DNA of 64,000 nt from Minisyncoccia bacterium (GCA_038249055.1 JBBRWS010000002.1:78118-142117), one strand, 5' to 3'. Shown: positions 3,231 through 55,548, numbered from the stretch's first letter. Program-made: numbers and translations. Notes: a model not told the origin generated them from the sequence alone.

Positions 3231-3358
3231 TAATGGATTATAACAGAAAAAGTGAGAGTAAGAATAGTGGGGGGTTATACATGATTGGAAATGTCGAAGG
3301 GACTTTCCGATTACATCGGCAGGTATTTTTCGGTCTCGTAAACTCGACATCGAAAAAT

Positions 3359-3375
3359 CTTTCAAGTCCCTTACG
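3359..3375 (+). repeat. Partial copy of tRNA-Asp T-arm/3' end (CTTTCAAGTCCCTTACG), in inverted orientation relative to the tRNA-Asp gene
   Basis: 14/16 match to GGTTCAAGTCCCTTCG of the tRNA at 3582-3655. Immediately followed (3376-3418) by the reverse complement of the 40-nt 'Y hairpin' also found at 13322-13362. Confidence 0.5.
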
Positions 3376-3485
3376 GAGCAAACCCAGTAGGTCATTTTAC
3401 TAAATGAGCAGTTTATGATGACTTGGTCACACATAATTTTCTGGTGAAAATTTGTGCTACCCCGACTCGGCTCGCCAGCCTCCGT

Positions 3486-3507
3486 CTTTCAAGTCCCTTC
3501 GACTGCC
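3486..3507 (+). repeat. Copy of tRNA-Asp 3' end (T-stem 3' strand plus acceptor: CTTTCAAGTCCCTTCGACTGCC), inverted relative to the gene
   Basis: 20/22 identical to the 3' terminal 22 nt of the tRNA-Asp sense sequence. Forms a 19-bp inverted repeat with 3583-3604 across a 75-nt spacer containing two hairpins. Confidence 0.6.
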
Positions 3508-3545
3508 ATTAAAAACAACTAATGTTGCTTTTAATGGCAAATAAA

Positions 3546-3573: not shown

Positions 3574-3581
3574 TTTATTTG

Positions 3582-3655
3582 CGCAGTCGAAGGGACTTGA
3601 ACCCTCAACCTCCCACGTGACAGGCGGGTGCTCTAACCAGTTGAGCTACAACTGC
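3582..3655 (-). tRNA. tRNA-Asp (anticodon GTC)
   Basis: Minus-strand cloverleaf GCAGTTG/TAGCTCAACTGGTTAGAGCA/CCCGCCTGTCACGTGGG/…GGTTCAAGTCC/CTTCGACTGC+G. 7-bp acceptor with one G-U, TTCAAGT T-loop, anticodon loop CT-GTC-AC. CCA not encoded. Confidence 0.85.
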
Positions 3656-5887: not shown

Positions 5888-6934
5888 ATGAATAAAAATA
5901 AAAGCACAAGCAATAATAATAAAGTTTTTAAAGGAGAAAATGCAATAAAAGATTTTTTGACACCAGGAGCATTGGGAATGACACCTATTGTTGAGCTTCC
6001 TCCTTCTCTAAATAAATTTTCTAAAGATGGTGTCAGAATATTTGTAAAGTTAATGCAATTTGTTCCTCTTGGAAATATAAAATCAATGCCATCATGGGAA
6101 ATGCTTTCCGGTATTGATAAAAATACTCTTAAAAATACAAAACATTTAGTTGAGTATTCATCAGGTAATACTGTTTTATCTCTTGCAATTCTTTCTCGTC
6201 ATTTTGGAATTCCAAATTTACACGCAATTATTACTCCTGATGTTCCAGAGCATAAAAAACGCTTACTTAAATTAGTTGGGGCAGATTTACTCATATCTCA
6301 TGGACCAAGAAGTCCCGATGTTCATAGTAAAATGGGGGGAGTTTATGAGGCTAAAAAACTTGGAGAAAAAAAGGGATGGCATAATCTAAATCAGTATATA
6401 AATCCTGGTAATGCGGGTGCATCAGAGGAATATGTAGCCAAAGAACTATGGAATCAACTAGGAGATAGTCTAACTATTTTTGCTTCAACTATTGGAACCG
6501 CTGGAACTATATATGGAACAGGAACTTATTTAAAATCAAAAAATAAAAATATTTATGTAGCCGGTTCTTCAATTAAAAAAGGTTCATCTATTCCTGGCCC
6601 TCGTGTAGATGAGGCTATACTTAAGCTCGGTATTCCTTGGTATGACATTGTAGATAAGGTTATTCCTATTGATGCAGTTTCTGCGTATGAAAGAAGCCTA
6701 GCACTTATCAGGCTTGGATTATTTGTTGGACCTTCAACAGGGATGCAATTAGCTATGATAGAAAAAATGTTAAAAGAAATGAAGAAAAATAAAACCCTTT
6801 CTCAATACAGAAATAAAAATAAAGAAGTTGTTATTGCTTTTGTGGCTTGTGATATGATGCATCCATACATAGACGATTATTTTTCTATTTTACCTAAAAA
6901 ATATTTCAAACCTGAACATAATTTAAATAAATAA
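5888..6934 (+). CDS. PLP-dependent enzyme of the cysteine synthase / Trp-synthase-beta (fold type II) family
   Basis: 348 aa. Lys in NIKSMPSW (PLP Schiff-base context), SGNTV glycine-rich loop, …RLLKLVGADLLISHG… matching CysK/CysM layout. Confidence 0.6.
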   Translation: MNKNKSTSNNNKVFKGENAIKDFLTPGALGMTPIVELPPSLNKFSKDGVRIFVKLMQFVPLGNIKSMPSWEMLSGIDKNTLKNTKHLVEYSSGNTVLSLAILSRHFGIPNLHAIITPDVPEHKKRLLKLVGADLLISHGPRSPDVHSKMGGVYEAKKLGEKKGWHNLNQYINPGNAGASEEYVAKELWNQLGDSLTIFASTIGTAGTIYGTGTYLKSKNKNIYVAGSSIKKGSSIPGPRVDEAILKLGIPWYDIVDKVIPIDAVSAYERSLALIRLGLFVGPSTGMQLAMIEKMLKEMKKNKTLSQYRNKNKEVVIAFVACDMMHPYIDDYFSILPKKYFKPEHNLNK

Positions 6935-9470: not shown

Positions 9471-11156
9471 ATGAAACAAAAACTTTCTGAAATTTCAAAA
9501 AAAGAGATACCTAATTGTAAGTATATCTTTGTCGTTGGTGGAGTTATTTCAGGTGTAGGTAAAGGAATTACTGCAAGTTCTATTGCACGTATTCTCTCTG
9601 ACCGAGGGGAGCGTGTTACTGCTATTAAAATTGATCCATATATAAATATTGATGCTGGTACTATGAATCCAACTGAGCATGGAGAAGTTTTTGTTTTAGA
9701 TGATGGTGATGAAACTGACCAGGATATGGGCAATTACGAACGTTTTCTTGGTGTAGATTTATCTCGTGCAAATTATTTAACTACAGGGCGTGTTTACCAA
9801 AGCGTAATCGAACGTGAAAGAAATTTAGAATACGGTGGTGCTTGTGTTCAGGTTGTACCTCATATTCCTCTTGAAGTTATTCGTCGCATAGAGAATGCTC
9901 GTGATAAGGCCAATGCCAATGTTGTTGTCATAGAGATAGGCGGTACTGTAGGTGAGTATGAAAATATTCTTTTTCTAGAAGCTGCACGTATGATGAAACT
10001 TCGTAATCATAGTAGTGTATTTTTTGTCATGGTTTCTTATTTACCAATACCAAGTAATGTTGGAGAAATGAAAACAAAGCCAACTCAACATGCCGTTAGA
10101 ACTTTAAATGCTTCAGGTGTACAACCGGATATCATTGTAGCCAGAAGTAAGGTGCCCCTTGATGAAAAAAGAAAAGAAAAATTATCTATGTTTTGTAATA
10201 TTGCACAAGACCATATTATTTCGGCTCCAGATGTAGAAAGTATTTATGATATACCAATAAATTTTGAAAAAGAGGGGTTAGGAGACATGATTTGCAATAC
10301 GATTGGTATGACTTGTGGCCCAGCTGTAAACGAAGGATCTAAAAAATGGAAGAAATTTGCTGATTCAAGTCACACAAAGAAAAATATTGTTAATATAGCT
10401 ATCGTTGGTAAGTATTTTAATACTGGGGATTTTACTTTATCTGATTCTTATTTATCAGTTATTGAAGCAATAAAATATTCTGCATATTCTGTTGGGAGTA
10501 AGCCAGTCTTAACTTGGATTTCATCTATGGATTTTGAGAAGGATCCTAAATCTATCAAAAAATTATCTAGTTATGATGGAATTATTGTTCCTGGAGGATT
10601 TGGCTCAAGAGGCATAGAAGGGATTTTGAAAACAATTGAATATGCAAGAAAACACAATATACCTTATTTCGGTCTTTGCTATGGTATGCAACTTTTAGTT
10701 ATTGAATATGCTCGTAATGTATTGGGTATTAAAGATGCTATAACTCGCGAAGTTAATCCAAATGCTAAAGATTTGGTTATAGATATAATGGAGGATCAAA
10801 AAGCAAAACTTGAAAATAAAGATATGGGAGCTAGTATGAGATTAGGAGCATATGTTGCACATTTAAAAAAGGGAACAATAGCACAAAAAGCTTACAAATC
10901 AGATATCATATCTGAACGTCATCGTCATCGTTATGAAGTAAATCCCGCTTATATAGAGAGATTGGAAAAGGCCGGGTTAGTATTTTCTGGTATTTCCCCA
11001 GACGGAACGCTTTGTGAAATAGCTGAATTACCTTCAAATAAACATCCATTTTTCTTGGGCACACAATTCCACCCAGAATTCAAAGCAAGACCGCTTTCTC
11101 CGCATCCTTTGTTTACTGCTTTTATTAAATCTTGTATAAAAAACAAAAAGAAATAA
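9471..11156 (+). CDS. pyrG: CTP synthase
   Basis: YIFVVGGVISGVGKGITASS N-terminus. C-terminal class-I glutamine amidotransferase domain (GLCYGMQL…, HPEF). Confidence 0.9.
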   Translation: MKQKLSEISKKEIPNCKYIFVVGGVISGVGKGITASSIARILSDRGERVTAIKIDPYINIDAGTMNPTEHGEVFVLDDGDETDQDMGNYERFLGVDLSRANYLTTGRVYQSVIERERNLEYGGACVQVVPHIPLEVIRRIENARDKANANVVVIEIGGTVGEYENILFLEAARMMKLRNHSSVFFVMVSYLPIPSNVGEMKTKPTQHAVRTLNASGVQPDIIVARSKVPLDEKRKEKLSMFCNIAQDHIISAPDVESIYDIPINFEKEGLGDMICNTIGMTCGPAVNEGSKKWKKFADSSHTKKNIVNIAIVGKYFNTGDFTLSDSYLSVIEAIKYSAYSVGSKPVLTWISSMDFEKDPKSIKKLSSYDGIIVPGGFGSRGIEGILKTIEYARKHNIPYFGLCYGMQLLVIEYARNVLGIKDAITREVNPNAKDLVIDIMEDQKAKLENKDMGASMRLGAYVAHLKKGTIAQKAYKSDIISERHRHRYEVNPAYIERLEKAGLVFSGISPDGTLCEIAELPSNKHPFFLGTQFHPEFKARPLSPHPLFTAFIKSCIKNKKK

Positions 11157-12034: not shown

Positions 12035-12145
12035 AAATCTAATTTTACTCCAATATTGTTATATTTTCAATTGTTTTTTGGCTGTTTTATGGTACTATGT
12101 TGAAGTTATCGATGCATTACATAATTAAATCGATTAAATAATTAT

Positions 12146-12216
12146 TGCGGGATCGTCTAATGGTAGGACTACAGTTTCTGGAACTGTGTATCTAGGTTCG
12201 AATCCTAGTCCCGCAG
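12146..12216 (+). tRNA. tRNA-Gln (anticodon CTG)
   Basis: TGCGGGA/TC/GTCT-AATGGTA-GGAC/T/ACAGT-TTCTGGA-ACTGT/GTAT/CTAGG-TTCGAAT-CCTAG/TCCCGCA+G. U1:A72 pair typical of bacterial tRNA-Gln. Confidence 0.8.
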
Positions 12217-12273
12217 CAAAAAAATAAAAGCGTAGCGTTTTTTGCTGCGGGACGAAAGCAAACTACTTTGCTT

Positions 12274-12456
12274 GCGTCTACGATTAGTAAATCGAACCGT
12301 GAGGAGGATTCGAAGACCTTTTCCGTGTGAGTGCGTCCACGAACGGAAAAGGTGTACAGAACCAGCGAATGAGTACATTCGCCTACTGGGTAGGGTTCGA
12401 AAAGTGCGAATGAGTACATTCGCCTACTGGGTACTCACGGTCCTAGTCCCGCAGCA
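12274..12456 (+). repeat. Structured repeat X (copy 1) ending in a direct copy of the tRNA-Gln 3' end (TCCTAGTCCCGCAGCA at 12441-12456)
   Basis: About 99% identical to 13369-13510 apart from an internal 42-nt duplication (GCGAATGAGTACATTCGCCTACTGGGTA occurs twice). Contains hairpins CCTTTTCCGT…ACGGAAAAGG and GCGAATG-AGTA-CATTCGC. Confidence 0.7.
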
Positions 12457-12505
12457 AATTTGACATAAAAGCAATTATATTGTTTATATATGCTATGATA
12501 TAGAT

Positions 12506-13216
12506 ATGAATAAAAATAAACTTGTTATAGCATTTTTTGTGTTAGTTATTGTTTTGGGATTCGGGGTGTACTACTTTTCTTCTAAGGATAAAACCATTCC
12601 ACCAGGCGAGGATATAAATTCTCCTTTGGTTTCTTCTGTGGTTTATAAAAATAATGATTACGGATTTAACTTTTCTTTACCTGCTAATTGGCAAGGATAT
12701 TCAATTGTGAGTAATACATGGGAAGGGATGTCTTTAACTACTTCCACGATAGTCGAAACTGGGCCAAAACTTCTAATACGGGATCCAAAATGGACAGTAA
12801 CTTCACCTCATGAAGATCTACCAATATTGGTTTTTACAATTCAGCAATGGAATTCATATCTAGCAGAGAATTTCTCCATTGGTGCCGCACCAATTAAAGC
12901 AAGTGAATTAGCACGTAATAATACTTACGTCTTCGCTCTTCCAACACGTTGGGATTTTGATTATAGTCTAGGCTTCAAAGAAGCACAGGATATTATTGCA
13001 GGAAATCCTATCCGTACATTCGATTTAGTAATAGTCGATAAACCACAAGGTAAGTTAAATATAAACGTCATATGTGAGCAGGCAATATCATACATGAAAT
13101 TTACAGATGCAAAAAGCGCAGATTTGTTTATTGCTGACTGTAAAGAAGGAAAACACCCCGAAGTAATAGAAAAATATAAAGCAGATATGAATCTTGGTGA
13201 TGGTGTTGCAATTTAA
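12506..13216 (+). CDS. Hypothetical secreted/membrane-anchored protein (N-terminal signal/TM)
   Basis: 236 aa with hydrophobic N-terminus (LVIAFFVLVIVLGFGVYYF). No recognisable catalytic motif. Confidence 0.5.
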   Translation: MNKNKLVIAFFVLVIVLGFGVYYFSSKDKTIPPGEDINSPLVSSVVYKNNDYGFNFSLPANWQGYSIVSNTWEGMSLTTSTIVETGPKLLIRDPKWTVTSPHEDLPILVFTIQQWNSYLAENFSIGAAPIKASELARNNTYVFALPTRWDFDYSLGFKEAQDIIAGNPIRTFDLVIVDKPQGKLNINVICEQAISYMKFTDAKSADLFIADCKEGKHPEVIEKYKADMNLGDGVAI

Positions 13217-13368
13217 TAGTAAAGAATAAATCAACAAGCTCAGACTTGTTTAGTTTTTTCTAAATAAGTTCCAACATCTACCCAGACCGCCGCAAATAAG
13301 CTAAGGCTTATTTGCGGCGGGAAGCGAGCAAACTGCTCATTTAATAAAATGACCTACTGGGTTTGCTC

Positions 13369-13510
13369 GCGTCTACGATTAGTAAATCGAACCGTGAGGA
13401 GGATTCGAAGACCTTTTCCGTGTGAGTGCGTCCACGAACGGAAAAGGTGTACTGAACCAGCGAATGAGTACATTCGCCTACTGGGTACTCACGGTCCTAG
13501 TCCCACAGCA
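13369..13510 (+). repeat. Structured repeat X' (copy 2) ending in a second direct copy of the tRNA-Gln 3' end (TCCTAGTCCCACAGCA at 13495-13510)
   Basis: Near-identical to repeat X (2 substitutions, lacks the 42-nt internal duplication). Preceded by a 15-bp perfect hairpin (CCGCCGCAAATAAGC…GCTTATTTGCGGCGG) and the Y hairpin at 13322-13362. Confidence 0.7.
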
Positions 13511-13592
13511 GTTTAGTATCGATGGACCTAGAGGGGTTAGGGACTGAGTCTCGAAATTTCTATATCAATGTTTATATGCTAAAATACCTAAT

Positions 13593-14123
13593 ATGAATAG
13601 AAAAAATATAATTATATTTACCTTGATCGCAATTCTTGCTTTAGCATACGTACTTATCAAGTACGTAAATCAGCCCGACCCCGAACAAAAAATAAAGGAT
13701 CCAGAGCCAATTGCATATGAGTGTAACGGTGATGGCAAGGTGTGCCCGGATGGTTCAGTTGTGGGCAGAACAGGAAGTGATTGTAGTTTTGCGATGTGCC
13801 CCGCGCCAGATGCAAAATCGGCAAAAATCACAACAACACTTGGGCAGGTATCAACCGCATTAAATGTTTCCATTACTCCCAAAGAAGTTGTTTCTGACAG
13901 TCGTTGCCCTTCTGACGTGCAATGCATCTGGGCTGGCACTGTCGAGGTACGTACCGTCACCGCAACCAAGGTCTCTCATGGCGAACAAATTTTCAAACTT
14001 AATGAGCCAAAAATATTCGGAGATTTTGAAATAACCTTGATCGAAGTTGCACCATACCCAAAGTCCGGCGAAAAAATCAAGGAATCATCCTATCGCTTTT
14101 CGTACGAAGTCACAAGAAGGTAG
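13593..14123 (+). CDS. Hypothetical secreted Cys-rich protein
   Basis: 176 aa. N-terminal TM/signal (IIIFTLIAILALAYVLI), 8 Cys in the mature part. Confidence 0.45.
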   Translation: MNRKNIIIFTLIAILALAYVLIKYVNQPDPEQKIKDPEPIAYECNGDGKVCPDGSVVGRTGSDCSFAMCPAPDAKSAKITTTLGQVSTALNVSITPKEVVSDSRCPSDVQCIWAGTVEVRTVTATKVSHGEQIFKLNEPKIFGDFEITLIEVAPYPKSGEKIKESSYRFSYEVTRR

Positions 14124-14306
14124 AGATAGGATTCTGTTATAATAAATTTATGAACATGTTTAAATCACTGAAGATCTAAAATTCATGGTAAATAAGTACT
14201 CGGAGTTCTCAGCCCTAATAAATCTTATTTTCCGTTAAAAATGTTCCAACATCGACCCAAACTCTCAGAAAGTTATTTTCAAATATTACCGTGATATAAT
14301 ATATAC

Positions 14307-15038
14307 ATGAAGAAAATTATTTACATTATTTTAATATTGGCTTTAGTTGGTATCCTCTTTTTTTCTATTATTGGAAACAAGAAGGAAGAAATAGTAAACA
14401 ATCCAATAAATAATTCCGAAACAGAATACGTATATTATAAAAATTCCGAATATAGCCCGGAATTCATTTATCCTAAATCGTGGGGAGAAGTTACTATAAA
14501 AGAAGGAAATAAAATATGTCCTGAGGAAGATAGTTATCGCACAAGTGATACGCTGCAAATTTTTGACTGGGAATTCGCCTTTAATGAAATAAAACTTCCA
14601 GGATCAGAAAGTATTATTCGTGTTGGTATTCGCCAGTATGAGCTCGACCCCAAAAAACTAAATGATTGCGGAGACGATTTTCATTTAAAGATTGCTAGAA
14701 AAGAAGTTATTCCCGAATCACTATCTTCTTTTATATTAAATTCAGTAACACTCAAGAGTGGTCTGTCTGGTACTTATAACAAGGAGGCTAGCCGGCTCAA
14801 TACAGAGGCACGAACACAATATGCTTTCTTTGTTTTACAAAACTCAAGAATATATATTCTTCAGCCTTACATGAGTTTTATTCCTTATTTTGGTTCTCCT
14901 GAGTTAAAAGAAATGGAACAAGAATTCGGTGGGGATATGAGTGAGTATATAAAGAGTGGAAAAACAGCCCAAAATATAAGAAGATATTTGGAAGAATTTA
15001 CTAAGATGACAGAAAGTTTGAAATTTTCGGCTAAATAA
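14307..15038 (+). CDS. Hypothetical secreted protein
   Basis: 243 aa. N-terminal signal-like helix (IIYIILILALVGILFFSII). Confidence 0.45.
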   Translation: MKKIIYIILILALVGILFFSIIGNKKEEIVNNPINNSETEYVYYKNSEYSPEFIYPKSWGEVTIKEGNKICPEEDSYRTSDTLQIFDWEFAFNEIKLPGSESIIRVGIRQYELDPKKLNDCGDDFHLKIARKEVIPESLSSFILNSVTLKSGLSGTYNKEASRLNTEARTQYAFFVLQNSRIYILQPYMSFIPYFGSPELKEMEQEFGGDMSEYIKSGKTAQNIRRYLEEFTKMTESLKFSAK

Positions 15039-15224
15039 TTGTTAAAGCTAAACTTGTTCCAATAGCGAACCATACGGCCAGCAATTGATATAATAAAAAT
15101 ATGAATCTAAAAAATTTTTTATTGGCTGGGCAATAAGTTTTTTTGTAGTTATTTGTTTAGTAATGATATATTATTTATTTTTTAAATAAATTCCAACTTT
15201 GTCCCATAAGGTCAGCAACTGTTT

Positions 15225-15719
15225 TTGATTTACTTTTGGTATAATAGAACTATGATTAAATATAAACATACCCAAATAGGATATCTAATGCTATTTGTTA
15301 CGCTAGCTGTTTTGGTGCTCTTCGCATGGGTTCAAATTATGGCCAGGCTCGAGTCTCCCTCGATCAACTCTGGCACAAATTTTGCTGTTACTGGGATAAT
15401 GGTATTAATCCTGTTTATTCTTGCATCATTTGCCACACTGACAGTATCGATTGATGAAAATTATGTACGAATAAAATTTGGTTATGGACTTTTTCAAAAG
15501 AAATTATTACTTAATGAAATAAGTTCTGTTAAAACTGTAAAAAATCATTGGTACTACGGATGGGGGATAAGATTATGGTTATGGCCTACCACTTGGATTT
15601 ATAATGTTTCTGGTTTTGATGCAGTTGAATTAATCATGAAGAACGGAAAAATATATCGAATAGGAACAGATGAACCAATAAAACTTGAATCTGCTATTAT
15701 CACAGCTATAAATAGATAG
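15225..15719 (+). CDS. Hypothetical membrane protein with bacterial PH-like (bPH/DUF304-type) C-terminal domain
   Basis: Two TM helices then …VRIKFGYGLFQKKLLLNEISSVKTV…GKIYRIGTDEP. Confidence 0.4.
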   Translation: MIYFWYNRTMIKYKHTQIGYLMLFVTLAVLVLFAWVQIMARLESPSINSGTNFAVTGIMVLILFILASFATLTVSIDENYVRIKFGYGLFQKKLLLNEISSVKTVKNHWYYGWGIRLWLWPTTWIYNVSGFDAVELIMKNGKIYRIGTDEPIKLESAIITAINR

Positions 15720-15851
15720 AATTCAAAGCATTATTAATAGTTTTGGAAATATTATTCTTTTAGAATGATTTACTAAAATTTAATATAAGTTCTAATATTG
15801 CACTAGATACACAGCAAGGTTTTTAACTATTGTTTTGGTATAATATGGCCT

Positions 15852-16016
15852 ATGAATGAAAATCAACAGAGAATTAAAGAAATTGAATATACTCAAATTA
15901 ATTTTTTGAATAAATTAAATGTTTTAAAAAATGAAAAGAATAGATTGACTAAGGATATAAATAAAAAGTTAGATTTAATCAAGATAGATAAAATCCTTAA
16001 TGATATAAACAAATAA
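15852..16016 (+). CDS. Possible small ORF (54 aa, coiled-coil-like: MNENQQRIKEIEYTQINFLNKLNVLKNEKNRLTKDINKKLDLIKIDKILNDINK)
   Basis: Starts 10 nt after a TGGTATAAT extended -10. Stop TAA lies 1 nt before the ATG of the next gene. Not in the supplied track (under 60 aa). Confidence 0.3.
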   Translation: MNENQQRIKEIEYTQINFLNKLNVLKNEKNRLTKDINKKLDLIKIDKILNDINK

Positions 16017-16017
16017 T

Positions 16018-16812
16018 ATGATTAATTTTGAAAAAAACATACAGAGTATTGAATTTAAAGATAATGAGAATGAATTTGTTGAATCTTTGCCCGAGTCTAA
16101 TTTAGAAGATTTATCTAGTAAAACCGAACTTGAAATTAATAATTCTGCAACGTTGCTTATTAATAAAAACTCTGAGTTGCTTGAAGAACCTGAGGCTAAA
16201 AATTTTCTAGAGGTAAAGAAGTTGGTTGAATTAAATGAAGAAATAAATAAACTTCAAAATGAAGCTATAGATAGTATTTCTTGGATTAAAAATATAAAAA
16301 GATTTAATTTAGATAAAAGTACAAAAGAAAGTTTTTATGATATTGAAATTCAGGGCTCTGAAGAATTTAGAGAAAAGATTAAAAATTCTTTAAGTTATTT
16401 ATCATTATCTCCAGAAAAATTAGATTTTTCTAAAAAATATATTAAAAGAATTCAAGAATGGAGTCATTCAGGTATGAATATGTTCAAAGATAAACCAACT
16501 TTTGAGATAGGGGATATCTGGAAAGAATCAGATGAAGTGTATTTAGCAAGCGGGATTGCTCATGATGCATATCATTCATATTTATGTGCTGGGAGTGAAG
16601 ATTCTAATGGGAATATTTCTTTGGGGGCTTATGTCGGAAAAGAAGCAGAAAAAAAATGCTTAGCTTTTCAAATTGATACACTGGAGAGTATTAAAAAAAC
16701 TGACCATATGAAGAATTATCAAAATGAGATTGATAATGATATTAATGGTCTTAAGGAATTAATGATTGATCCAACATATCAAGATATTCCATATGAGGAG
16801 AGGAATTGGTAA
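16018..16812 (+). CDS. Hypothetical protein
   Basis: 264-aa acidic ORF. No recognisable motifs. Confidence 0.45.
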   Translation: MINFEKNIQSIEFKDNENEFVESLPESNLEDLSSKTELEINNSATLLINKNSELLEEPEAKNFLEVKKLVELNEEINKLQNEAIDSISWIKNIKRFNLDKSTKESFYDIEIQGSEEFREKIKNSLSYLSLSPEKLDFSKKYIKRIQEWSHSGMNMFKDKPTFEIGDIWKESDEVYLASGIAHDAYHSYLCAGSEDSNGNISLGAYVGKEAEKKCLAFQIDTLESIKKTDHMKNYQNEIDNDINGLKELMIDPTYQDIPYEERNW

Positions 16813-16896
16813 TAAACTTATTCACATAAAATAATTTCTAGCATCGACCCAGACAGTCAGCAGTGGTTTTAACTATTGTTTTGGTATAATGCAATC

Positions 16897-17313
16897 ATGA
16901 ATAATATTAGACCCAATGCCTTAATTATAATTGTAAAAGATAATTATGTGCTTGCTGAAAAAGGGGTTGATTTAAATACAAATAAAACTTTTTACCGTCT
17001 TATGGGTGGTGGTATTGAATTTGGTGAATTATCCTCGATGACAACCAAAAGAGAAATGTTGGAAGAGTTAAATGTAGAAATCATAAATGAAGAATTTCTG
17101 TGTTCAATTGAAAATATTTTTGAATTCAATTCAAAAAAATATCACGAGCTCACTTTTTTATATAAAGGAGAATTTTTAGATAAATCTATGTATGAAAAAC
17201 AAATAATCCAAAGAGTTGATGGTTATTCCAGTTACTCTGAGTGGGTTTCTATATCAGAAATTAAAAAAGGTAATATTATATTTTATCCTGAAAAAGCCAT
17301 AGAATATCTTTAA
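16897..17313 (+). CDS. NUDIX hydrolase
   Basis: Nudix box GGGIEFGELSSMTTKREMLEELNV. Start moved to MNNIRPNAL because the track start at 16876 lies inside the TTTTGGTATAAT promoter. Confidence 0.7.
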   Translation: MNNIRPNALIIIVKDNYVLAEKGVDLNTNKTFYRLMGGGIEFGELSSMTTKREMLEELNVEIINEEFLCSIENIFEFNSKKYHELTFLYKGEFLDKSMYEKQIIQRVDGYSSYSEWVSISEIKKGNIIFYPEKAIEYL

Positions 17314-17338
17314 ACTATTTATTTGATACAATAAACCA

Positions 17339-18253
17339 ATGTCCACTGTTAAAACTAAAATAGATAAAGAAATAGTATTTTCTTATCTTAAAAATAATTT
17401 TGATAATTCTGTTTTAAATCTAGAATTTATAAATGGAGGAGAGATGTCTCAGGCTTTTAGCTTTCAAACGAACAAAGGTAACTTTGTTATTAGGGTAAAT
17501 ACAAGTTCAAGGTCTTTTTATAAAGACCAAAAGGCCTTTGAGCGTTTTGGTAATAAGGGTGTGCCAATTCCTAAAATAATAGAGATAGGTCAAATGGATG
17601 ATATCTATCATTTTGCAATTTCTGAAAAAGCAGAAGGCAAACACATAACAGATCTTACAGAGGAAGAATATAAAAAAACACTACCAAGTCTTTTGAAAAT
17701 AATGGATTCTATCCATGATTTGGGGATAAAAAATACAAAAGGTTTTGGAAAATGGAATCTAGAAGGTAATGGGGTTTATGATACATGGAGAGAATTTATT
17801 CTTGCTGTAAATGAATTTCAAAACAAAGAAGATCTTTTTAAGACATCTTTTTTAGAGAAGGATATATGGGAAAAAATTTATTCGAAAATTGAAAAACTTT
17901 CAGAATTTTGTCCTGAAGAAAGATTTTTAGTTCATGGAGATTATGGTAATAATAATGCTGTATCAGACGGAGAGAAGGTCACAGGTGTTTTCGATTGGGC
18001 AGATTCGTTGTATGGAGATTATTTATATGATATTGCTTGGATTACATTTTGGTTAAAGAAACCTGAAAGAATAAAAGAAATTGAGGACTACTATGAAGTT
18101 AAAAATATTTCTAATTTTACACAAAGATTACTTTGTTATAAATTACGCATAGGTCTTGGATCATTAAGTTTTTATGCTTATTCTAACCAAAAAGATAAAT
18201 ATGACTCTATTAAACAAAGAACGCTTAATTTATTACCTGAATTAAATAAGTAG
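17339..18253 (+). CDS. Aminoglycoside/choline-kinase-type phosphotransferase (APH family)
   Basis: Brenner motif FLVHGDYGNNN and DWADSLYGDYLYDIA (HGDxxxxN…D). Confidence 0.7.
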   Translation: MSTVKTKIDKEIVFSYLKNNFDNSVLNLEFINGGEMSQAFSFQTNKGNFVIRVNTSSRSFYKDQKAFERFGNKGVPIPKIIEIGQMDDIYHFAISEKAEGKHITDLTEEEYKKTLPSLLKIMDSIHDLGIKNTKGFGKWNLEGNGVYDTWREFILAVNEFQNKEDLFKTSFLEKDIWEKIYSKIEKLSEFCPEERFLVHGDYGNNNAVSDGEKVTGVFDWADSLYGDYLYDIAWITFWLKKPERIKEIEDYYEVKNISNFTQRLLCYKLRIGLGSLSFYAYSNQKDKYDSIKQRTLNLLPELNK

Positions 18254-18344
18254 TTATTTAGCCTTATTTTTAGCAATAAAAGTTAAAATTTCAATCCAAA
18301 CAATTAGCAATTATTTTGACTACCGTTTTGGTATAATTAAAAAC

Positions 18345-18956
18345 ATGAAAATATTACTTGCTACAAATAATAAAGGAAAGGTAGAAAGATTTAAAAAATT
18401 AATAAATTACATAGATTCAAATATTGAATTATTTTCACCCAATGAGTTAGGAATTAATCCTATTGATACAGAAGAAAATGGTAAAACTCTTATGGAGAAT
18501 GCTCTATTAAAAGCTAATGCATATTTTGGTAAAATTGATATTCCAATTTTGTCTAATGATACAGGATTTTATGTTGAAGGGGATGGATTTATTGATGCCC
18601 CTAAAAGAATAGCATTGGAAGGCAAAAATGAAAATGAATTATCAGAAGAAGAAATATCTAAGAGACTACTAAATTTTTGGAAAGCAATTGCAACGAAGCA
18701 TGGAGGGAAAGTTGATGCTATTTGGATAGAGGCTTGGGTTGTTTTATATCCCAATGGAGAAATCAAGAAGGTTGAATCCAGAAGAGAAATAATTTTAACT
18801 GACCAAGAATTTGGAGTACCTCATATTCATATGCCAATTAGGGCTTTATATTATTCTAAGATAACAAATAAGCCTGCAATTTTACATACAGAAGAAGATG
18901 AAATCATAGAAATGTCACCTATTTTGAAAGCTTTGCAAGAAGTTTTAGGACTTTAA
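18345..18956 (+). CDS. Ham1/RdgB-like non-canonical purine NTP pyrophosphatase (divergent C-terminus)
   Basis: N-terminal ILLATNNKGKVERFKKL and …LSNDTGFYVEG resemble the RdgB/ITPase core. C-terminal third diverges. Confidence 0.5.
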   Translation: MKILLATNNKGKVERFKKLINYIDSNIELFSPNELGINPIDTEENGKTLMENALLKANAYFGKIDIPILSNDTGFYVEGDGFIDAPKRIALEGKNENELSEEEISKRLLNFWKAIATKHGGKVDAIWIEAWVVLYPNGEIKKVESRREIILTDQEFGVPHIHMPIRALYYSKITNKPAILHTEEDEIIEMSPILKALQEVLGL

Positions 18957-19007
18957 ATAATTTACAATATGGACTCAAACTCTAGTTAATTTGATACAAT
19001 AAAATAT

Positions 19008-19514
19008 ATGGAAGAAAAAACAATTAATGCATTGAAGTGGATAGTTTCAATCCTAAATAAACATAATATTCCATATAGAATAGGGGGTGGTTTTGCTGCA
19101 CATATGTATGGTTCAAATCGCCCAGTAAATGATATAGACTTTTCTCTTTCTGGAAAATATTTTCCTATTATTGTTTCAGAAGTGAAAGAATTCATCACCT
19201 CAGGACCAAAACATTATTTGAATGCAAAATGGGATTGTGATACTCTCTCCCTTAACTATTATGGTCAGGAAATAGATATAACTGATATTGATACCTTACG
19301 GATGAGCAATAAAGAACAGACAGAGTGGTTTCAAACAAAAGATAATTATCGTAAATTTTCTAATTTTATAAAAGTAGTTGATGGTATTGAAATATCATTA
19401 ATTAATCCAAATGATTTAGTTGCATATAAAAAAGAATTAGTTGATAAAGATCATCGATATCAATTAGATGATGTTGAGACAGTAGAGAAATATATAATTA
19501 ATCATAATCTTTAA
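19008..19514 (+). CDS. Pol-beta-superfamily nucleotidyltransferase, Lnu(A)/LinA-like (lincosamide nucleotidyltransferase-type fold)
   Basis: 168 aa. YRIGGGFAAHMYGSNRPVNDIDFSL parallels Lnu(A) YWLDGGWGVDVL…DIDIDF (G[GS]…DxD nucleotidyltransferase motif). Size matches Lnu(A) (about 160 aa). Confidence 0.5.
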   Translation: MEEKTINALKWIVSILNKHNIPYRIGGGFAAHMYGSNRPVNDIDFSLSGKYFPIIVSEVKEFITSGPKHYLNAKWDCDTLSLNYYGQEIDITDIDTLRMSNKEQTEWFQTKDNYRKFSNFIKVVDGIEISLINPNDLVAYKKELVDKDHRYQLDDVETVEKYIINHNL

Positions 19515-19543
19515 AATAAATTTCAACTTCTAAAAACAAGACC

Positions 19544-19861
19544 ATGCAAACATTTTCTGAGAGAGTAATTAAAATAGCATTGGGAATTCCAAAAGGTAGA
19601 GTTACTACGTATGGAAGAATTGCTAGAGCTTGCGGGGCAGGTCCTATGGCTTCACAAAGTATAACTAATATACTAGGAAAGGCTTATATGGCAGGAATAA
19701 AAAATATTCCTTTCCATAGGATTGTATATTCTGATGGCAAGGTGTGGATTAATGATAAATATAAAAAGGAAAGATTTGCTCTATATAAAAAAGAGGGGAT
19801 TGAATTGGATAAAAATAATAAAATTTTAAACTTCAGAGATATTTTGTTTGAATTTAAATAA
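19544..19861 (+). CDS. Alkyltransferase-like protein (MGMT DNA-binding domain lacking the acceptor Cys)
   Basis: YGRIARACGAG…NIPFHRIV: MGMT helix-turn-helix with Phe replacing the PCHRV cysteine, as in ATL proteins. Confidence 0.6.
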   Translation: MQTFSERVIKIALGIPKGRVTTYGRIARACGAGPMASQSITNILGKAYMAGIKNIPFHRIVYSDGKVWINDKYKKERFALYKKEGIELDKNNKILNFRDILFEFK

Positions 19862-19923
19862 TTTATAACATCATACTAAGCTATCAACTAGGATTTTTGG
19901 TCATAATTATATATAATTTTTGT

Positions 19924-20379
19924 ATGGCTTATAAATATTTTTCATCAGGTTATTTAGTAAGAGATGGTAAGGTTCTTTTAGTTCATCATAAGAAATTTGA
20001 TAAATGGACACCCCCAGGAGGACATCTTGAAGAAAATGAAACTCCTGACCAAGCGCTTATTAGAGAATGGAAGGAAGAGTTAGATTTAGATATTGGAATT
20101 TTACCAGCTCACGAAAGCGCTTTTTCTGGTGATGCAAATGCGACTCCAGTTCCAATGCCTTTTCATATTAATCTTGAGCGTGAAGGTTTTGATGTTCCAC
20201 ATATTGGTTATTTTTTCTATGTAAGACTGGAAGATTCAGATCAAATAATTACAGTTTTGGAAAGTGAATTACATGACGCTAAATGGTTTTCTAAAGAAGA
20301 ACTTTCTACTATTCAAACTTTTGACCAAGTGCGGGCATTAGCAGAATATGCTATTAATCATTTTCCAGAAATTTCCTAA
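19924..20379 (+). CDS. NUDIX hydrolase
   Basis: PGGHLEENETPDQALIREWKEELDL Nudix box. Start at MAYKYF because the track start overlaps the -10 element. Confidence 0.7.
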   Translation: MAYKYFSSGYLVRDGKVLLVHHKKFDKWTPPGGHLEENETPDQALIREWKEELDLDIGILPAHESAFSGDANATPVPMPFHINLEREGFDVPHIGYFFYVRLEDSDQIITVLESELHDAKWFSKEELSTIQTFDQVRALAEYAINHFPEIS

Positions 20380-20436
20380 ATATATGAATATTTATATTTC
20401 ACATTTTAAAGATTTTAATTTTTATACAATATTTTT

Positions 20437-20790
20437 ATGGAAAATAATAAATTTATAGAAAATTCGTCAGAAAGAATATTACGTTGTTTACAAGATTATT
20501 CTAATGATTTTATGGCAATTGAAATTATTTTTAGAAGTAGTGGTATAGATGGTGTTCGGAAACTTATCAAAGATGGGTATAGGATATCAACTGTTGAAAA
20601 CTATTTACAAAAATATAGAACAGAAGGCAGAAAGACAATTAGTCTGGAAGACCAAAAAGATTCTATATTTATTGAAAAAGCACAAATACTAAATAATTTG
20701 GCAAATAAAATTAATTCACTAGGGGAAAATGTAGATGAACGTACTATAAGTGAAACTATAGAAGTAGTTAAAAGGATTATTTATAATTAG
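20437..20790 (+). CDS. Hypothetical protein
   Basis: 117-aa ORF. Last gene of the co-directional + strand array. Confidence 0.4.
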   Translation: MENNKFIENSSERILRCLQDYSNDFMAIEIIFRSSGIDGVRKLIKDGYRISTVENYLQKYRTEGRKTISLEDQKDSIFIEKAQILNNLANKINSLGENVDERTISETIEVVKRIIYN

Positions 20791-20823
20791 ATAAAATAAA
20801 ATAGATTTTATTAGAGTCTAATA

Positions 20824-21543
20824 TTATTCAAATTTATTTAAATAATCTAAATTTAATTGCTCGGCTAGTATCTCTTTTTGTTTTTGATCTAAATACTTTT
20901 GTAGAAGTAGCGCTATTTTTTCAGTAATTACACCTTTAATAGCATTGTTTGATGCAATCGATACTATAACCATTGCATCTTTTTTATTTATAGGTACATT
21001 TAAATACCTCGCAATTTTTTGTGCAATTGGAGTTTGTAATTTTTTACTTCGCCATTTTATATGTTCAAGAACTTTTTTTACATCTTGGTCTGTTATTAAC
21101 TTGGGATTAATTTGATTTGAATTTGTCATTTTCCATGTATGACGAATAATTCCTAGTATTCCTAATTTCTCAAGTACATCAGCATCATGCACGATTTTAG
21201 CCTCAAGTGTTTTTGGTTTTTCAGTTCCTTCATGTGAAGCTACACATTCCGCAATGAGTTCTTTATCCGTTTGTGATATATCAATAGGGGATAATAAATT
21301 CATCACAATTTTTTTATTATTTTTATAATTGTAATCATTGCCTGTTGGTAATGCAGTATCATGAAGCCATGCCCCTCCCTCAACAATTGATAAATCTGCT
21401 TTTGTTTTGATTGCTAAATATTTTGCTATTTTTACAGCACGAAATAAATGCTTATTTCCTTTGGATTTTCCCCCGAAGGCGATTTCATGGTCTATTTTAA
21501 TTCCGAGTTTTTTAATTTCTTTTATTTTTTTCTGGTTAATCAT
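20824..21543 (-). CDS. HD-domain phosphohydrolase
   Basis: H…HD…H…D arrangement (GGAWLHDTALP…, KIVHDADVLEKLG). Confidence 0.7.
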   Translation of the reverse strand: MINQKKIKEIKKLGIKIDHEIAFGGKSKGNKHLFRAVKIAKYLAIKTKADLSIVEGGAWLHDTALPTGNDYNYKNNKKIVMNLLSPIDISQTDKELIAECVASHEGTEKPKTLEAKIVHDADVLEKLGILGIIRHTWKMTNSNQINPKLITDQDVKKVLEHIKWRSKKLQTPIAQKIARYLNVPINKKDAMVIVSIASNNAIKGVITEKIALLLQKYLDQKQKEILAEQLNLDYLNKFE

Positions 21544-24942: not shown

Positions 24943-26217
24943 ATGGACATACTTTTAATCATTTTTTTAATATTACTCAACGGTGTTTTCTCAATGAGCG
25001 AAATTGCAATGGTTTCCTCACGTAAATTTAAGCTGGAAAGTGCAGCAAAGAGTGGTAGTAAAAGTGCCAAACGTGCTTTAGAACTCGCTAATAATCCAAA
25101 TCGTTTTCTTTCAACCATTCAAATAGGCATAACTCTCATTGGTATCCTTATTGGTATTTTTAGTGCTGAAAAAATAACAGATAATCTTACTAATTTGATT
25201 TCTTTCATAGATATTTTATATCCCTATGCACATTCTATTGCGGTGATTATAGTCGTTATTATTGTAACTTTTTTTTCTATAGTTCTTGGGGAACTTTTAC
25301 CAAAAAGAATTGGACTTCTTTTCCCCGAAAAAATTGCATCTGTTATGGCAAAACCAATGCACTTACTTTCAAAAATATCTTCACCTTTTATATGGCTTCT
25401 TAGTATTACAAATGAATTTCTTTTAAAATTGTTTGGTATTAAAAGTGAATCAAAACATGGAGTTACAGAAGAAGAGATAAGAGCGATTATTCAAGAGGGA
25501 GCCCTTGGTGGTGAAGTGCAGGAAATTGAACAAGATATTATTGAGAGAGTATTTGGACTAGGGGACCGCAAGGTTGTAGAGCTTATGACTCACCGAAAAG
25601 ACATGATTTGGTTAGATGTGAATGATACAATTGCTCTTATTCAAAAAAAAATAGCATTAGAGCCACATTCTGTTTATCCAGTTGCTGATGGAAAACTAGA
25701 TAAACTACTTGGAGTTGTTAGCGCAAAAGATATGTTTGCTGCTCTTGGGCGTATTGATTTTTCTTTAGTTGATTATATAAAAAAACCCCTAGTTGTTCAT
25801 GAAAATACACCAGCCTATCGTCTTTTAGAAAAGTTTCGAAAAGTTAGATGGCATGCTGCGCTCGTTGTAGATGAGTATGGCTCTCTTCAAGGTGTTGTCT
25901 CTATGGATGATGTCGTAGATGCTCTTCTTGGTGATGTGTCAGAATACAACCAGCAAGAATATAAAATTACACTGCGTGAAGATGGAACTTGGCTTGCTGA
26001 TGGTCAATATCCATATTTTGAACTATTACATTTTTTTGACATTACAGATATTGATTCAGAAAGAGAATATAATACTATTGCCGGACTTATATTACATAAA
26101 GTTGAAAATATTCCTACTGTGGGAGAAAAAATTGATTGGGGTCATTTCACTCTTGAGATTTTAGATATGGATGGATCACGCATAGATAAGGTGCTTATCA
26201 CCAAGAAAAATATTTAA
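24943..26217 (+). CDS. CNNM/HlyC-CorC family transporter (DUF21 + CBS pair + CorC_HlyC)
   Basis: N-terminal DUF21 (…NGVFSMSEIAMVSSRKFKLE…), tandem CBS, C-terminal transporter-associated domain. Confidence 0.8.
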   Translation: MDILLIIFLILLNGVFSMSEIAMVSSRKFKLESAAKSGSKSAKRALELANNPNRFLSTIQIGITLIGILIGIFSAEKITDNLTNLISFIDILYPYAHSIAVIIVVIIVTFFSIVLGELLPKRIGLLFPEKIASVMAKPMHLLSKISSPFIWLLSITNEFLLKLFGIKSESKHGVTEEEIRAIIQEGALGGEVQEIEQDIIERVFGLGDRKVVELMTHRKDMIWLDVNDTIALIQKKIALEPHSVYPVADGKLDKLLGVVSAKDMFAALGRIDFSLVDYIKKPLVVHENTPAYRLLEKFRKVRWHAALVVDEYGSLQGVVSMDDVVDALLGDVSEYNQQEYKITLREDGTWLADGQYPYFELLHFFDITDIDSEREYNTIAGLILHKVENIPTVGEKIDWGHFTLEILDMDGSRIDKVLITKKNI

Positions 26218-51893: not shown

Positions 51894-52095
51894 TTTAAAT
51901 TAATAGTTTAGGTACTTCATTAAATATTAAAATTTTTCAAGTCCTCGGATGAGGGAGGACGAGGGGCCAGACCATTCAAAATTTTATATTTAATTACGTA
52001 CCGATTTAACCAGTAGTTGATTCAATTAATGATTCTGATGAATTGTTTATTGAATAAGATTTTTTATAAATAATTTGTTAAGTTTAATAAAATAT

Positions 52096-55000: not shown

Positions 55001-55548
55001 ACGATGAAGAGAGTGTACATTTATCAGGATGGCCTAAAAATGAAGAAAGTAAAAAAGAGGAAATAGAAAAAATTATTAAAGAAATGAGAGAGGTTAGAGA
55101 TGTCGTAACTCTTGGTTTGCAGGCAAGACAAAAAGTTGGTATTCCAGTACGACAACCACTTGGTGAATTACGAATTACAAACTATGATTTAAAAGAAGAA
55201 TATTTAGAAATTATTAAAGATGAGCTAAATGTTAAGATGGTAAAGTTTTTAGAAGATGTTGAACAAAAAATAGAATTGGATACATATATAACAGAGGATT
55301 TAAAAAATGAAGGTCAGTGTCGTGAACTATTAAGAAGTATTCAAGATATAAGAAAGAAAAATGGATTAAATCCAAATGATGTTATAATTCTTAGTATTGA
55401 TACGAATGTGTCTGGACAAGAATTAATAAATAAATTTAAAAAGGAAATAATGAAAGCAGTTAGTGCAAAAGAAATACAAATTGAAGAAAATAATGGAATA
55501 GAGATAAAAATTGATGAATTTGTATTTAAGGTTGTAGTAGAAAAATAA
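52096..55548 (+). CDS. ileS: Isoleucine--tRNA ligase with an inserted histidine-phosphatase (PGAM/SixA-like) domain
   Basis: HIGH-type motif PPTANGKPGIHHLE, editing-domain TTPWTLPGN, WAISRERYWGTPLPVW, KMSKS. Between WGTPLPVW and DVWLDSGS (about 60 aa in E. coli IleS) sits a roughly 200-aa insert carrying FIMRHGETECN and ILIITHGSPVWLM (approx. nt 53560-54150). Start at ATG 52096 (the track TTG at 52075). Confidence 0.9.
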   Translation: MDEKNPKTNSALREEEVLKFWKENEIFKKSLEKDSPKGEYVFYEGPPTANGKPGIHHLEARAFKDAIPRYKTMKGYHVGRKGGWDTHGLPVELQVEKKLGLSSKKAIEEYGVAKFNKECKESVWEYTDLWEKFTERIGFWVDQENPYVTYHNDYIESVWNVIKEANKQDLLYKDYKVVPWCPRCGTGLSSHELAQGYVDVKDLSIYAKFKIKGKENTYILAWTTTPWTLPGNVALAVGEKIMYVKVKAGEDFYILAESRYPFVSQEYQIVEKIKGEDLIGLQYEPLYPYLENIISDSEKPKLEKAYKIYNADFVTTEDGTGVVHTAVMYGQDDFELGNKIGLPKHHLVGLDGKFLAGTGFLEGRFVRDEEVAVDIIKDLAHRGFLFKKEKYEHSYPHCWRCKTALIYYARDSWYIRMSSLRDKLIKENENINWEPSHIKEGRFGEWLKDIKDWAISRERYWGTPLPVWSCLECKKMEVLGSIEDIKSKTKKSGNKYFIMRHGETECNIRGEVSDTVNNDDKLTKLGREQVLNSVKGLKKKNIDLIIISPFVRTKETVDILALEMDFNKDNILFDDRLHEMSVPMYEGKKWEDYHNDYPKSVENFYKAPEGNESYEDVRRRSMSFLYDIEKKYSGKNILIITHGSPVWLMFSEVNGLSTSESLGIIARDNSYCYLNNGEFIELPFVPVPHDENYKVDLHKPYIDEINLTCECGGELSRAKEVMDVWLDSGSMPFAQSHYPFEKKEIQYPADFISEAVDQTRGWFYTLHAVGVIMGRGNAYKNVICLGLLLDANGKKMSKSVGNVVDPWAMMDKYGVDTIRLWMYSVNQPGEPKNFDEKIISELHNKVFNLLYNVLAFYELYRDEKVENRKEKVESQNVLDQWILTRLDELIIITTINLDDYKLLEPVRAIREFIDDLSTWYLRRSRERIKEGDVEAKITLYNVFKILSKLMAPFAPFTAEDIWQKLRNEDDEESVHLSGWPKNEESKKEEIEKIIKEMREVRDVVTLGLQARQKVGIPVRQPLGELRITNYDLKEEYLEIIKDELNVKMVKFLEDVEQKIELDTYITEDLKNEGQCRELLRSIQDIRKKNGLNPNDVIILSIDTNVSGQELINKFKKEIMKAVSAKEIQIEENNGIEIKIDEFVFKVVVEK

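Follow-up and report, generated by a model that had tools for sequence, protein, structure and literature searches.

A one-directional gene array at a tRNA-Gln gene

The DNA analysed here is a window of 64,000 nucleotides from a Minisyncoccia bacterium (GCA_038249055.1, JBBRWS010000002.1:78118-142117), in which an array of small unrelated genes, separated by a shared junction repeat of about 85 nt (84 nt as first delimited), follows a tRNA-Gln gene. The array, its repeat and a structured element found beside the tRNA gene are the subject of this study. Data on the locus comprised these 64 kb of one genome and were of sequence only. The G+C content of the window is 31%, and the LOG-family protein encoded next to the tRNA-Gln gene shows 71% identity to proteins of Candidatus Nomurabacteria and of Paceibacterota metagenome-assembled genomes (MAGs). 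Very small genomes are typical of the Candidate Phyla Radiation (CPR), or Patescibacteria. The tRNA-Gln(CUG) gene that anchors the array is located at 12146..12217 on the + strand (ARAGORN; Rfam, 59.6 bits). From this gene up to position 20790 only the + strand is used, and a preliminary description of the locus was right in placing every gene from 12506 to 20790 on that strand. It had counted about 15 small unrelated genes; small and unrelated they are, but they number 13 open reading frames (ORFs) of 54-304 aa, together with one dead ORF of 11 codons.

The 3' end of the tRNA-Gln gene (TCCTAGTCCCGCAGCAAA, 12203-12220) recurs at 12441-12458 and 13495-13512 in a direct-repeat search, and these three copies bound the two proximal units; further copies occur in a related contig, L003. 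Module 1 (12506..13216, +) encodes a 236-aa predicted secreted protein with no Pfam match, and its G+C content at third codon positions (GC3) is 0.24 as against 0.18 in core genes. The family has 431 homologues, the named ones being from Parcubacteria-type MAGs, and no near-identical donor of this presumably newest module was found, the top non-self homologue being 70% identical. Module 2 (13593..14123, +) encodes a 176-aa Cys-rich predicted secreted protein and has, with a GC3 of 0.40, the most foreign composition of the array. Module 3 (14307..15038, +; a 243-aa predicted secreted protein) and module 4 (15252..15719, +; a 155-aa membrane protein) follow, neither with a Pfam match. Module 5 (15852..16812, +) is a two-gene unit encoding proteins of 54 aa and 264 aa, which by blastn and blastp is common to the related genome L021 (GCA_964663815.1), with 87% nucleotide identity and a synonymous divergence (dS) of 0.57-0.58.

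Matches were found for the two Nudix hydrolases, the APH-family kinase and the alkyltransferase-like (ATL) protein that had been named in the preliminary description. The first Nudix gene (16897..17313, +; 138 aa; a weak match, Pfam 25.6 bits) is not followed by the box that makes up the 5' half of the junction repeat, and the promoter of the APH gene adjoins it directly. The APH-family kinase (17339..18253, +; 304 aa; Pfam E=6e-20) is again common to L021 (87% nucleotide identity); its top NCBIfam model is APH(4)-Ia, at 155 bits versus a cut-off of 725. The supposed Ham1-like NTPase is a 203-aa Ham1/RdgB-like protein (18345..18956, +) whose match is limited to the N-terminal 78 aa, while the supposed Lnu(A)-like protein, a 168-aa product (19008..19514, +), gave only a sub-threshold match to a nucleotidyltransferase family (DUF2204) and none in NCBIfam. 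A reading of these two genes, the APH and the Lnu-like one, in terms of aminoglycoside or lincosamide resistance thus found no support in family cut-offs, the first lying far below its family cut-off and the second having no match. The ATL gene (19544..19861, +; 105 aa) is common to L021 (85% nucleotide identity) and to a further contig, L031 (78%), and its neighbours differ among the three; the protein has a DNA_binding_1 domain with PFHR where PCHR, the motif of active methyltransferases, would stand. The second Nudix gene (19924..20379, +; 151 aa; Pfam E=4e-18) precedes the last gene of the + strand (20437..20790), which encodes a 117-aa protein of no family and has no box after it. The next gene past 20790 encodes an HD-domain protein (20824-21543) and is convergent with the array. 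Defence-system models gave a single weak match, to Nudix, and phage and plasmid collections were matched by the tRNA itself alone. A Logan contig (L001, SRR19962012, 7932 bp) is 100% identical to positions 13475-21406 and starts within the second copy of the structured element; the repeated structured element therefore probably breaks short-read assemblies at the array.

Junction repeat and structured element

The repeat that had been proposed for the spacers is real. A 19-mer, TTCCAACATCGACCCAGAC, occurred three times at up to two mismatches, as compared to no occurrence in 100 shuffles. An nhmmer profile built from five full copies (14226, 15177, 15779, 16818 and 18265) regained all five, along with untrained partial copies at 13251 and 15043 (E=1e-4 each), and gave weak matches at 18950 and 19849 (E=0.3-0.5); in the remaining 55 kb of the window no match was better than E=0.5. 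The family in the window thus comprises 5 full, 2 partial and 2-3 degenerate copies. Most of the copy starts listed in the preliminary description stood; those at 19515 and 19880 were barely detectable, the former being seen solely by repeat search as a 23-nt match, and that at 13256 proved to be the left half of the repeat only.

This left half, box A (13256..13297, +; nhmmer E=7e-9), has no promoter and runs into the 225-nt structured element. Junction B (14226..14309, +; E=3e-15, box E=8e-10) consists of a box and TGATATAAT, followed after 6 nt by ATG. Junction C (15043..15137, +; E=1e-4) is partial, with TGATATAAT, and leads to the dead 11-codon ORF (15102-15137), after which junction D (15177..15254, +; E=4e-16) again has a box, TGGTATAAT, 6 nt and ATG. 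The double repeat noticed earlier around the dead ORF is therefore present, at 15043-15254, and junction C with its dead ORF is probably the relic of a lost module. Junctions E (15779..15854, +; E=3e-16) and G (18265..18347, +; E=6e-14) have a degenerate box with TGGTATAAT, and the best copy is junction F (16818..16899, +; E=4e-20), with box, CAGCAG, GGTTTTAACTATTGTTTTGGTATAAT, 6 nt and ATG. Decayed junctions lie at 18950..19010 (H, +; E=0.5, and repeat search) and 19849..19926 (J, +; E=0.27). The copies were said to end in one and the same extended -10 at 5-8 nt from ATG, and often to begin on the preceding stop codon. An extended -10 was indeed found, with TGGTATAAT in only four copies, TGATATAAT in two and a distance of 6-7 nt, and the copies start 15-117 nt after the stop codon instead of on it.

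Alignment resolved the repeat into three segments: the box, (CCCTTATTTTNNG)TTAAATAAGTTCCAACATCGACCCAGAC; a short AGYCAGCA(A/G); and a promoter segment, GGTTTTAACTATTGTTTTGGTATAAT, 6-7 nt before ATG. The box of about 35-45 nt (TTAAATAAGTTCCAACATCGACCCAGACAGYCAGCA), which forms the 5' half, was found in the 64 kb only in the array. The 3' half reads TGnTATAAT, 6-7 nt, ATG. As judged by sequence, this 3' half is the ordinary leaderless promoter of the host, because TAnAAT precedes ORFs across the window and TGnTATAAT-N6-ATG also precedes core genes, and the array-specific part is the ~60 nt upstream of it. TAnAAT was found 4-9 nt before a start codon in 31 of the 72 ORFs of the window and a Shine-Dalgarno-like motif in two, and TGnTATAAT-N6-ATG occurred 10 times, core genes included, versus 0.14 expected. 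Among array ORFs of at least 100 codons, 11/12 were flagged with a predicted TAnAAT at this distance, one of the 11 being the ATL gene, where the match falls inside the ORF and is not a promoter. Canonical -35/-10 promoters were not enriched in the array and no intergenic terminators were found; the promoters are of the extended -10 type.

Spacing between box and promoter is variable, since a 55-nt insert or a 165-225-nt element may intervene. Junction copies within one genome are 60-80% identical to each other, and 12 or more copies from different genomes retain the same 20-nt core of the box. The homology of the 54+264-aa module with L021 (blastn) spans from the -10 to the end of the downstream box, and the box therefore travels with the upstream gene. 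The repeat is thus a junction, made of the 3' box of one module and the promoter segment of the following one, and not a single promoter element. It had been described as having no obvious attC symmetry, and this was borne out: when both strands of the five full junctions were folded as DNA, minimum free energies were -1.9 to -5.1 kcal/mol and z values -0.32 to +1.46, with no attC-like fold, and neither repeat search nor consensus alignments revealed an inverted repeat or dyad symmetry in the box. What is conserved in the junction is sequence, not structure. Three matches of the box in viral contigs all lay inside ORFs and were set aside as chance.

Two stretches near the tRNA are, in contrast, GC-rich and strongly folding. 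Copy 1 of the structured element (12221..12458, +; fold z=-8.0; nhmmer E=3e-38) shows covariation and contains, in order, a small terminator-like hairpin, a complement of the tRNA 3' end, conserved hairpins and 18 nt identical to the 3' end of tRNA-Gln. Copy 2 (13288..13512, +; 225 nt; fold z=-7.1; nhmmer E=3e-38) is 98% identical to copy 1 over the 3' ~170 nt, while the 5' ~60 nt differ, and its tRNA-Gln 3' end has two changes. Rfam found only the tRNA at gathering score, and a search of 12100-13620 at E<=10 gave no relevant match. A metagenome scan with the element core yielded 12 loci, with the element directly 3' of tRNA genes of several isotypes; together with profile matches in other loci and the window, these are Gln, Asp, Ile, Glu, Ser, Arg and Lys. 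The element, of ~170-240 nt, was recognised in the window, L013-L016, L018, L020, L003 and L021.

Its layout is a terminator-like hairpin, a complement of the tRNA T-stem and acceptor 3' strand, conserved hairpins and a copy of the 3' end of that same tRNA. The closing stem pairs the T-stem/acceptor complement with the strand copy, so that the ends of the element vary with the preceding tRNA. In an alignment of only 8 sequences, chosen through an invariant 19-mer, 89.5% of cells were paired in the consensus structure as compared to 74.5% in shuffles, and 20 pairs had changed on both sides as compared to 10 ± 1.9; 0/500 shuffles reached the observed values, and slid controls were far lower. The top strand folded slightly better in 8/11 copies, which is not decisive. 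Protein coding was considered and rejected, as other copies do not preserve the ORFs 12242-12463 and 13349-13516 and the stem variation is compensatory. The element core had no match in viral contigs. Within arrays the element was found three times (window, L003 and L021); in each case a box stands immediately before it and a copy of the 3' end of tRNA-Gln closes it. With the element between two CAGCA repeats taken out, the series box, element, tRNA end and promoter reads as a solo junction.

Some further occurrences were noted. Downstream of tRNA-Asp (3581-3655), at ~3290-3540 on the - strand of the window, lies a variant of the element with a terminator hairpin, the tRNA-Asp 3' complement (AGTCGAAGGGACTTGAA), the motif AAAATGACCTACTGGGT and 12 nt copied from the 3' end of tRNA-Asp, followed by the promoter of the next gene; L002, another relative, has a weak element-profile match just 3' of its own tRNA-Asp (E=0.0011). 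Elements and spacers of arrays also repeatedly contain a short motif, (AAAA)TGACCTACTGGGT, in the window (13349-13380, 12383-12395 and 3385-3400 on the - strand), L003 (~5470 and ~2840), L014, L010 and, in reverse orientation, the spacers of L027. It is complementary to the box core CCCAGACAGTCA at 9/12 positions, which may be chance or may mark a pairing site.

Gene turnover, polarity and divergence among relatives

The left flank of the array (RF1, FtsE, FtsX, PyrG, LOG and tRNA-Gln) is ~80% identical in L002, L003 and L021, and in all three homology ends at the tRNA 3' end, to the right of which gene order is entirely different. In L002 this position is occupied by a type I restriction-modification island on the other strand with a serine-recombinase fragment, an ORF at the far end of the island with Recombinase and Zn_ribbon_recom matches and no detected catalytic domain. 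In the same contig, at 9770-9800 (-), the tRNA-Gln 3' end TCCAGGTCTGGCAGC stands in tandem duplicate with zero spacer, and past it a GC-rich stretch of ~100 nt, closed by CACGTGAG...CTCACGTG, precedes the restriction-modification island. L003 carries another array, of 13 small-to-medium genes oriented as the tRNA. In L021, 15 genes lie on the + strand, and the window-trained profile detected 10 or more copies of the junction repeat (E 2e-12 to 4e-5). The window and L021 have only three modules in common, namely the 54+264-aa pair, the APH gene and the ATL gene, with different genes in between.

The same box was found in the arrays of four other genomes, L021 and L003, which also have the left flank of the window, and L030 and L031, which are contigs found via homologues of array proteins; a diverged box, TTCGAACATCCTCCCAAGTTTGGAGCA, is present in the more distant L023 (12 copies) and L027. 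In the first module of L021 the promoter begins 1-2 nt past the tRNA end, GGCAGC|TAGGTTATAAT, with no box. The PKcyc module, 91% identical between L031 and L021 (ATL in the same pair, 81%), has as its left neighbour a solo box in L031 and, in L021, an element ending in the tRNA-Gln 3' end, the promoter segments being identical from the junction onwards. Because of these two contexts and of the abutment in L021, the box and the 3' ends of the tRNA and of the element are interchangeable left neighbours of a module, which on the sequence comparison is promoter, gene and box.

Box quality is polar. Scored with profiles trained on the other genome, boxes dropped in score with distance from the tRNA both in the window (rho=-0.80, p=0.002) and in L021 (rho=-0.82, p=0.0003). 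In the window GC3 also fell with distance (rho=-0.84): the four proximal modules, all absent from L021, have values of 0.24-0.40, and the distal ones 0.14-0.21, with the core at 0.181 ± 0.014. The four shared genes have dS values of 0.53-0.81 as compared to 0.96-1.83 in six flanking core genes (Mann-Whitney p=0.0095), a roughly two-fold gap that is approximate as core dS is near saturation. Their dN/dS is 0.09-0.15. The shared modules are thus functional and younger than their flanks, and, since their dS is below that of the flanking core, they were evidently exchanged after the split of the lineages.

Other observations in these contigs and in the window are recorded here. In L023 a 300-nt stretch with the start of a bPH_2 gene is duplicated with 100% identity (6540-6839 and 16867-17166), and the duplicates flank a 6-kb block on the opposite strand (DUF87 and nSTAND3/AAA genes), which looks as if it had been inserted into the array. 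A 399-aa distant homologue (52% identity) of the 264-aa array protein, found in L028 (10001-11200) and L029, sits in a type IV secretion/conjugation cluster (TrbL, PrgI, TraC-like, TraG). The isoleucyl-tRNA synthetase of the window (52075-55548, +; 1157 aa) has a His_Phos_1 domain inserted at residues 504-668, splitting the catalytic-domain match; the first array module of L021 is a free-standing His_Phos_1 gene. The CNNM/CorC transporter (24943-26217, +) has a few close CPR relatives at 70-86% identity, followed by ~60% matches that include many named Bacteroidota proteins (Chitinophagaceae-type genera), which suggests that the gene has moved between phyla.

Origin of the array and comparison with known systems

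We consider it about an even chance (probability roughly 0.5) that the array is a flexible island of a Paceibacterota (CPR) genome, anchored at tRNA-Gln and built of one-gene, occasionally two-gene, modules inserted next to the tRNA, with the box or the tRNA end as sites. A module consists of its own leaderless promoter (extended -10, 6-7 nt, ATG), its ORF and a conserved, unstructured 3' box. New modules would enter mainly on the tRNA-proximal side and push older ones outward; distal boxes would decay, modules would vanish by deletion, and the gene pool would circulate by exchange among related lineages. Recombination would take place at the box or the tRNA 3' end, probably assisted by the ~200-nt structured element with its copy of the tRNA 3' end, and would be catalysed in trans by an enzyme encoded elsewhere, because no recombinase is encoded nearby. 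The cassette reading of the preliminary description is supported here by the presence or absence of single genes, the tRNA anchor, the polarity and the younger dS of shared modules. The two grounds for refutation named in that description both fell away: only the -10/ATG end of the repeat turned out to be generic, with the box confined to the array, and gene order is not conserved in relatives.

Several results weigh against such an island. No recombinase or transposase domain (Phage_integrase, Resolvase and Recombinase included) was found in 65 ORFs across the 64 kb, in agreement with the earlier remark that no integrase is in view, and neither a circular or excised form nor a donor copy of any module was seen. 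The shared modules follow one another in the same order in both the window and L021, for which homologous replacement is a simpler explanation than insertion at the tRNA only. The GC3 gradient was not reproduced in L021 (rho=0.17), and the saturation of core dS makes the age difference approximate. A descent of the box from a decayed tRNA-Gln 3' end was dropped, as its score of 6-8 against that end is not significantly above the scores against other tRNA ends (mean 5.8 ± 1.2; tRNA-Met 9). The box ends in CAGCA, the same as the tRNA-Gln gene. Synteny did not define where the island ends on the right, CorC homologues sitting in unrelated contexts.

A possible, though rather unlikely, alternative is that homologous recombination alone has shaped the locus. 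The junctions would then be diverged descendants of one intergenic sequence, and the array would change through RecA-dependent replacement by DNA taken up from relatives; shared modules, junctions and the element core would serve as homology anchors, deletions would occur between repeats, and there would be no dedicated site-specific system. Block or allelic replacement would yield what the window and L021 show, a shared order together with dS younger than the flanks. The two element copies of the window are mosaic, with 3' 170 nt 98% identical and 5' 60 nt diverged, resembling recombination within the element; RecO is encoded in the window, and a nearby recombinase gene is missing. However, junctions of 60-80% identity within a genome are a poor substrate for RecA, yet the 20-nt core has been retained in its 12 or more copies, box quality declines monotonically from the tRNA in two genomes, and the first module of L021 abuts the tRNA end to the nucleotide. 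Taken together, these four points argue for a recognised site and a polar process.

It is also conceivable, but unlikely, that Paceibacterota have a cassette-capture system not described before, in which tRNA 3' ends, or the box as a stand-in, receive small promoter-bearing modules, with the ~200-nt element as attachment site. One strand of the element, when folded, would present a double-stranded replica of the tRNA target, a logic like that of the folded single strand of attC which could be reprogrammed to any tRNA, with the enzyme again acting in trans; as RNA, the element could be a guide or a mimic of a tRNA minihelix.

Less credible still is a purely regulatory role, in which the box would be an operator or UP-like element co-regulating small 'house-cleaning' and surface genes, as a propagated promoter module, and gene turnover would be incidental. 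A promoter segment at every gene would fit this, as would the themed products (two Nudix, Ham1-like and ATL proteins in the window; HIT and NADAR in relatives), and homologous promoters before unrelated genes have already been described (PMC3488235). An operator would nevertheless be expected neither to shift by 55 to 225 nt relative to the promoter nor to be replaced by a tRNA end only, as in the first module of L021; moreover, the box stays with the upstream gene across genomes, lacks dyad symmetry and decays in distal positions though the genes are under purifying selection. A classical integron is hardly tenable, and neither is a cluster of attC sites that lacks an integrase (CALIN): the one-directional, mostly single-ORF units, the recurring inter-unit sequence and the content variable among relatives justify the earlier term integron-like, but the absence of folding on both strands refutes attC for the junction repeats, no tyrosine recombinase or IntI was found among the 65 ORFs of the window, and the units carry their own promoters.

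The locus is an organised place where accessory genes turn over gene by gene in a tiny CPR genome, and its junction is common to several genomes (window, L021, L003, L030 and L031; diverged in L023 and L027). In the literature on CPR tRNA-linked islands or RNA motifs we found no description of the box, the element or such an array. If a dedicated recombination system is at work, it would be a second, mechanistically different solution to the task performed by integrons, and the change of the element stem with the tRNA suggests a reprogrammable target site that may have technical interest. If there is homologous exchange only, the locus is still a clear array of promoter-equipped accessory genes in an uncultivated phylum. 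The box and the element core form a searchable signature for such arrays.

Putative mobile promoters are homologous promoter sequences found before non-homologous genes in one genome (PMC3488235). The array likewise reuses promoter sequence before non-homologous genes; its copies, however, are not dispersed (one 6-kb array within 64 kb), have one orientation, include the 3' box of the upstream gene and are common to arrays in other genomes. Tycheposons of Prochlorococcus integrate serially at tRNA genes, leaving partial tRNAs and decaying remnants, and carry their own tyrosine or large serine recombinase, replication genes and kilobases of cargo (10.1101/2020.12.28.424599). The similarities include a streamlined genome, an island beside a tRNA with partial tRNA 3' ends inside (12441-12458 and 13495-13512), a conserved flank on the tRNA side, which L002, L003 and L021 match as far as the 3' end of tRNA-Gln, and newer insertions that would displace older ones with decay of remnants; L002 has a different island at the same tRNA. 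Unlike tycheposons, the units of the array are single genes of 0.3-1 kb without recombinase and are bounded by a dedicated box, not by recognisable partial tRNAs.

The pdif modules of Acinetobacter plasmids comprise one or two genes between short conserved sites, with Xer encoded elsewhere; the sites, in which two inverted arms of 11 nt flank a spacer of 6 nt, are 28 nt long and alternate in orientation. The array resembles these Xer-dependent dif modules in its small one- and two-gene modules bounded by short conserved sites and, on the reading preferred here, in a recombinase that would be encoded elsewhere, whereas its box lacks dyad symmetry and every copy has the same orientation. In integrons, attC sites are imperfect palindromes (R''-L''/L'-R') that fold as single strands, and cassettes are mostly promoterless, being expressed from the common Pc promoter. 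The array differs from integrons and CALINs in that its site is conserved in sequence and unfolded, its units have promoters, no IntI is adjacent and the primary site is the end of a tRNA gene; the sole fold reminiscent of a folded site is the long-range stem of the separate ~200-nt element. The likeness lies in one-directional, mostly single-gene units with a recurring inter-unit site and with content that differs between close relatives. As with integrons, one end of the array has a fixed primary site, with the 3' end of tRNA-Gln in place of attI, and the box-score gradient suggests that here too the newest units are those nearest to the primary site.

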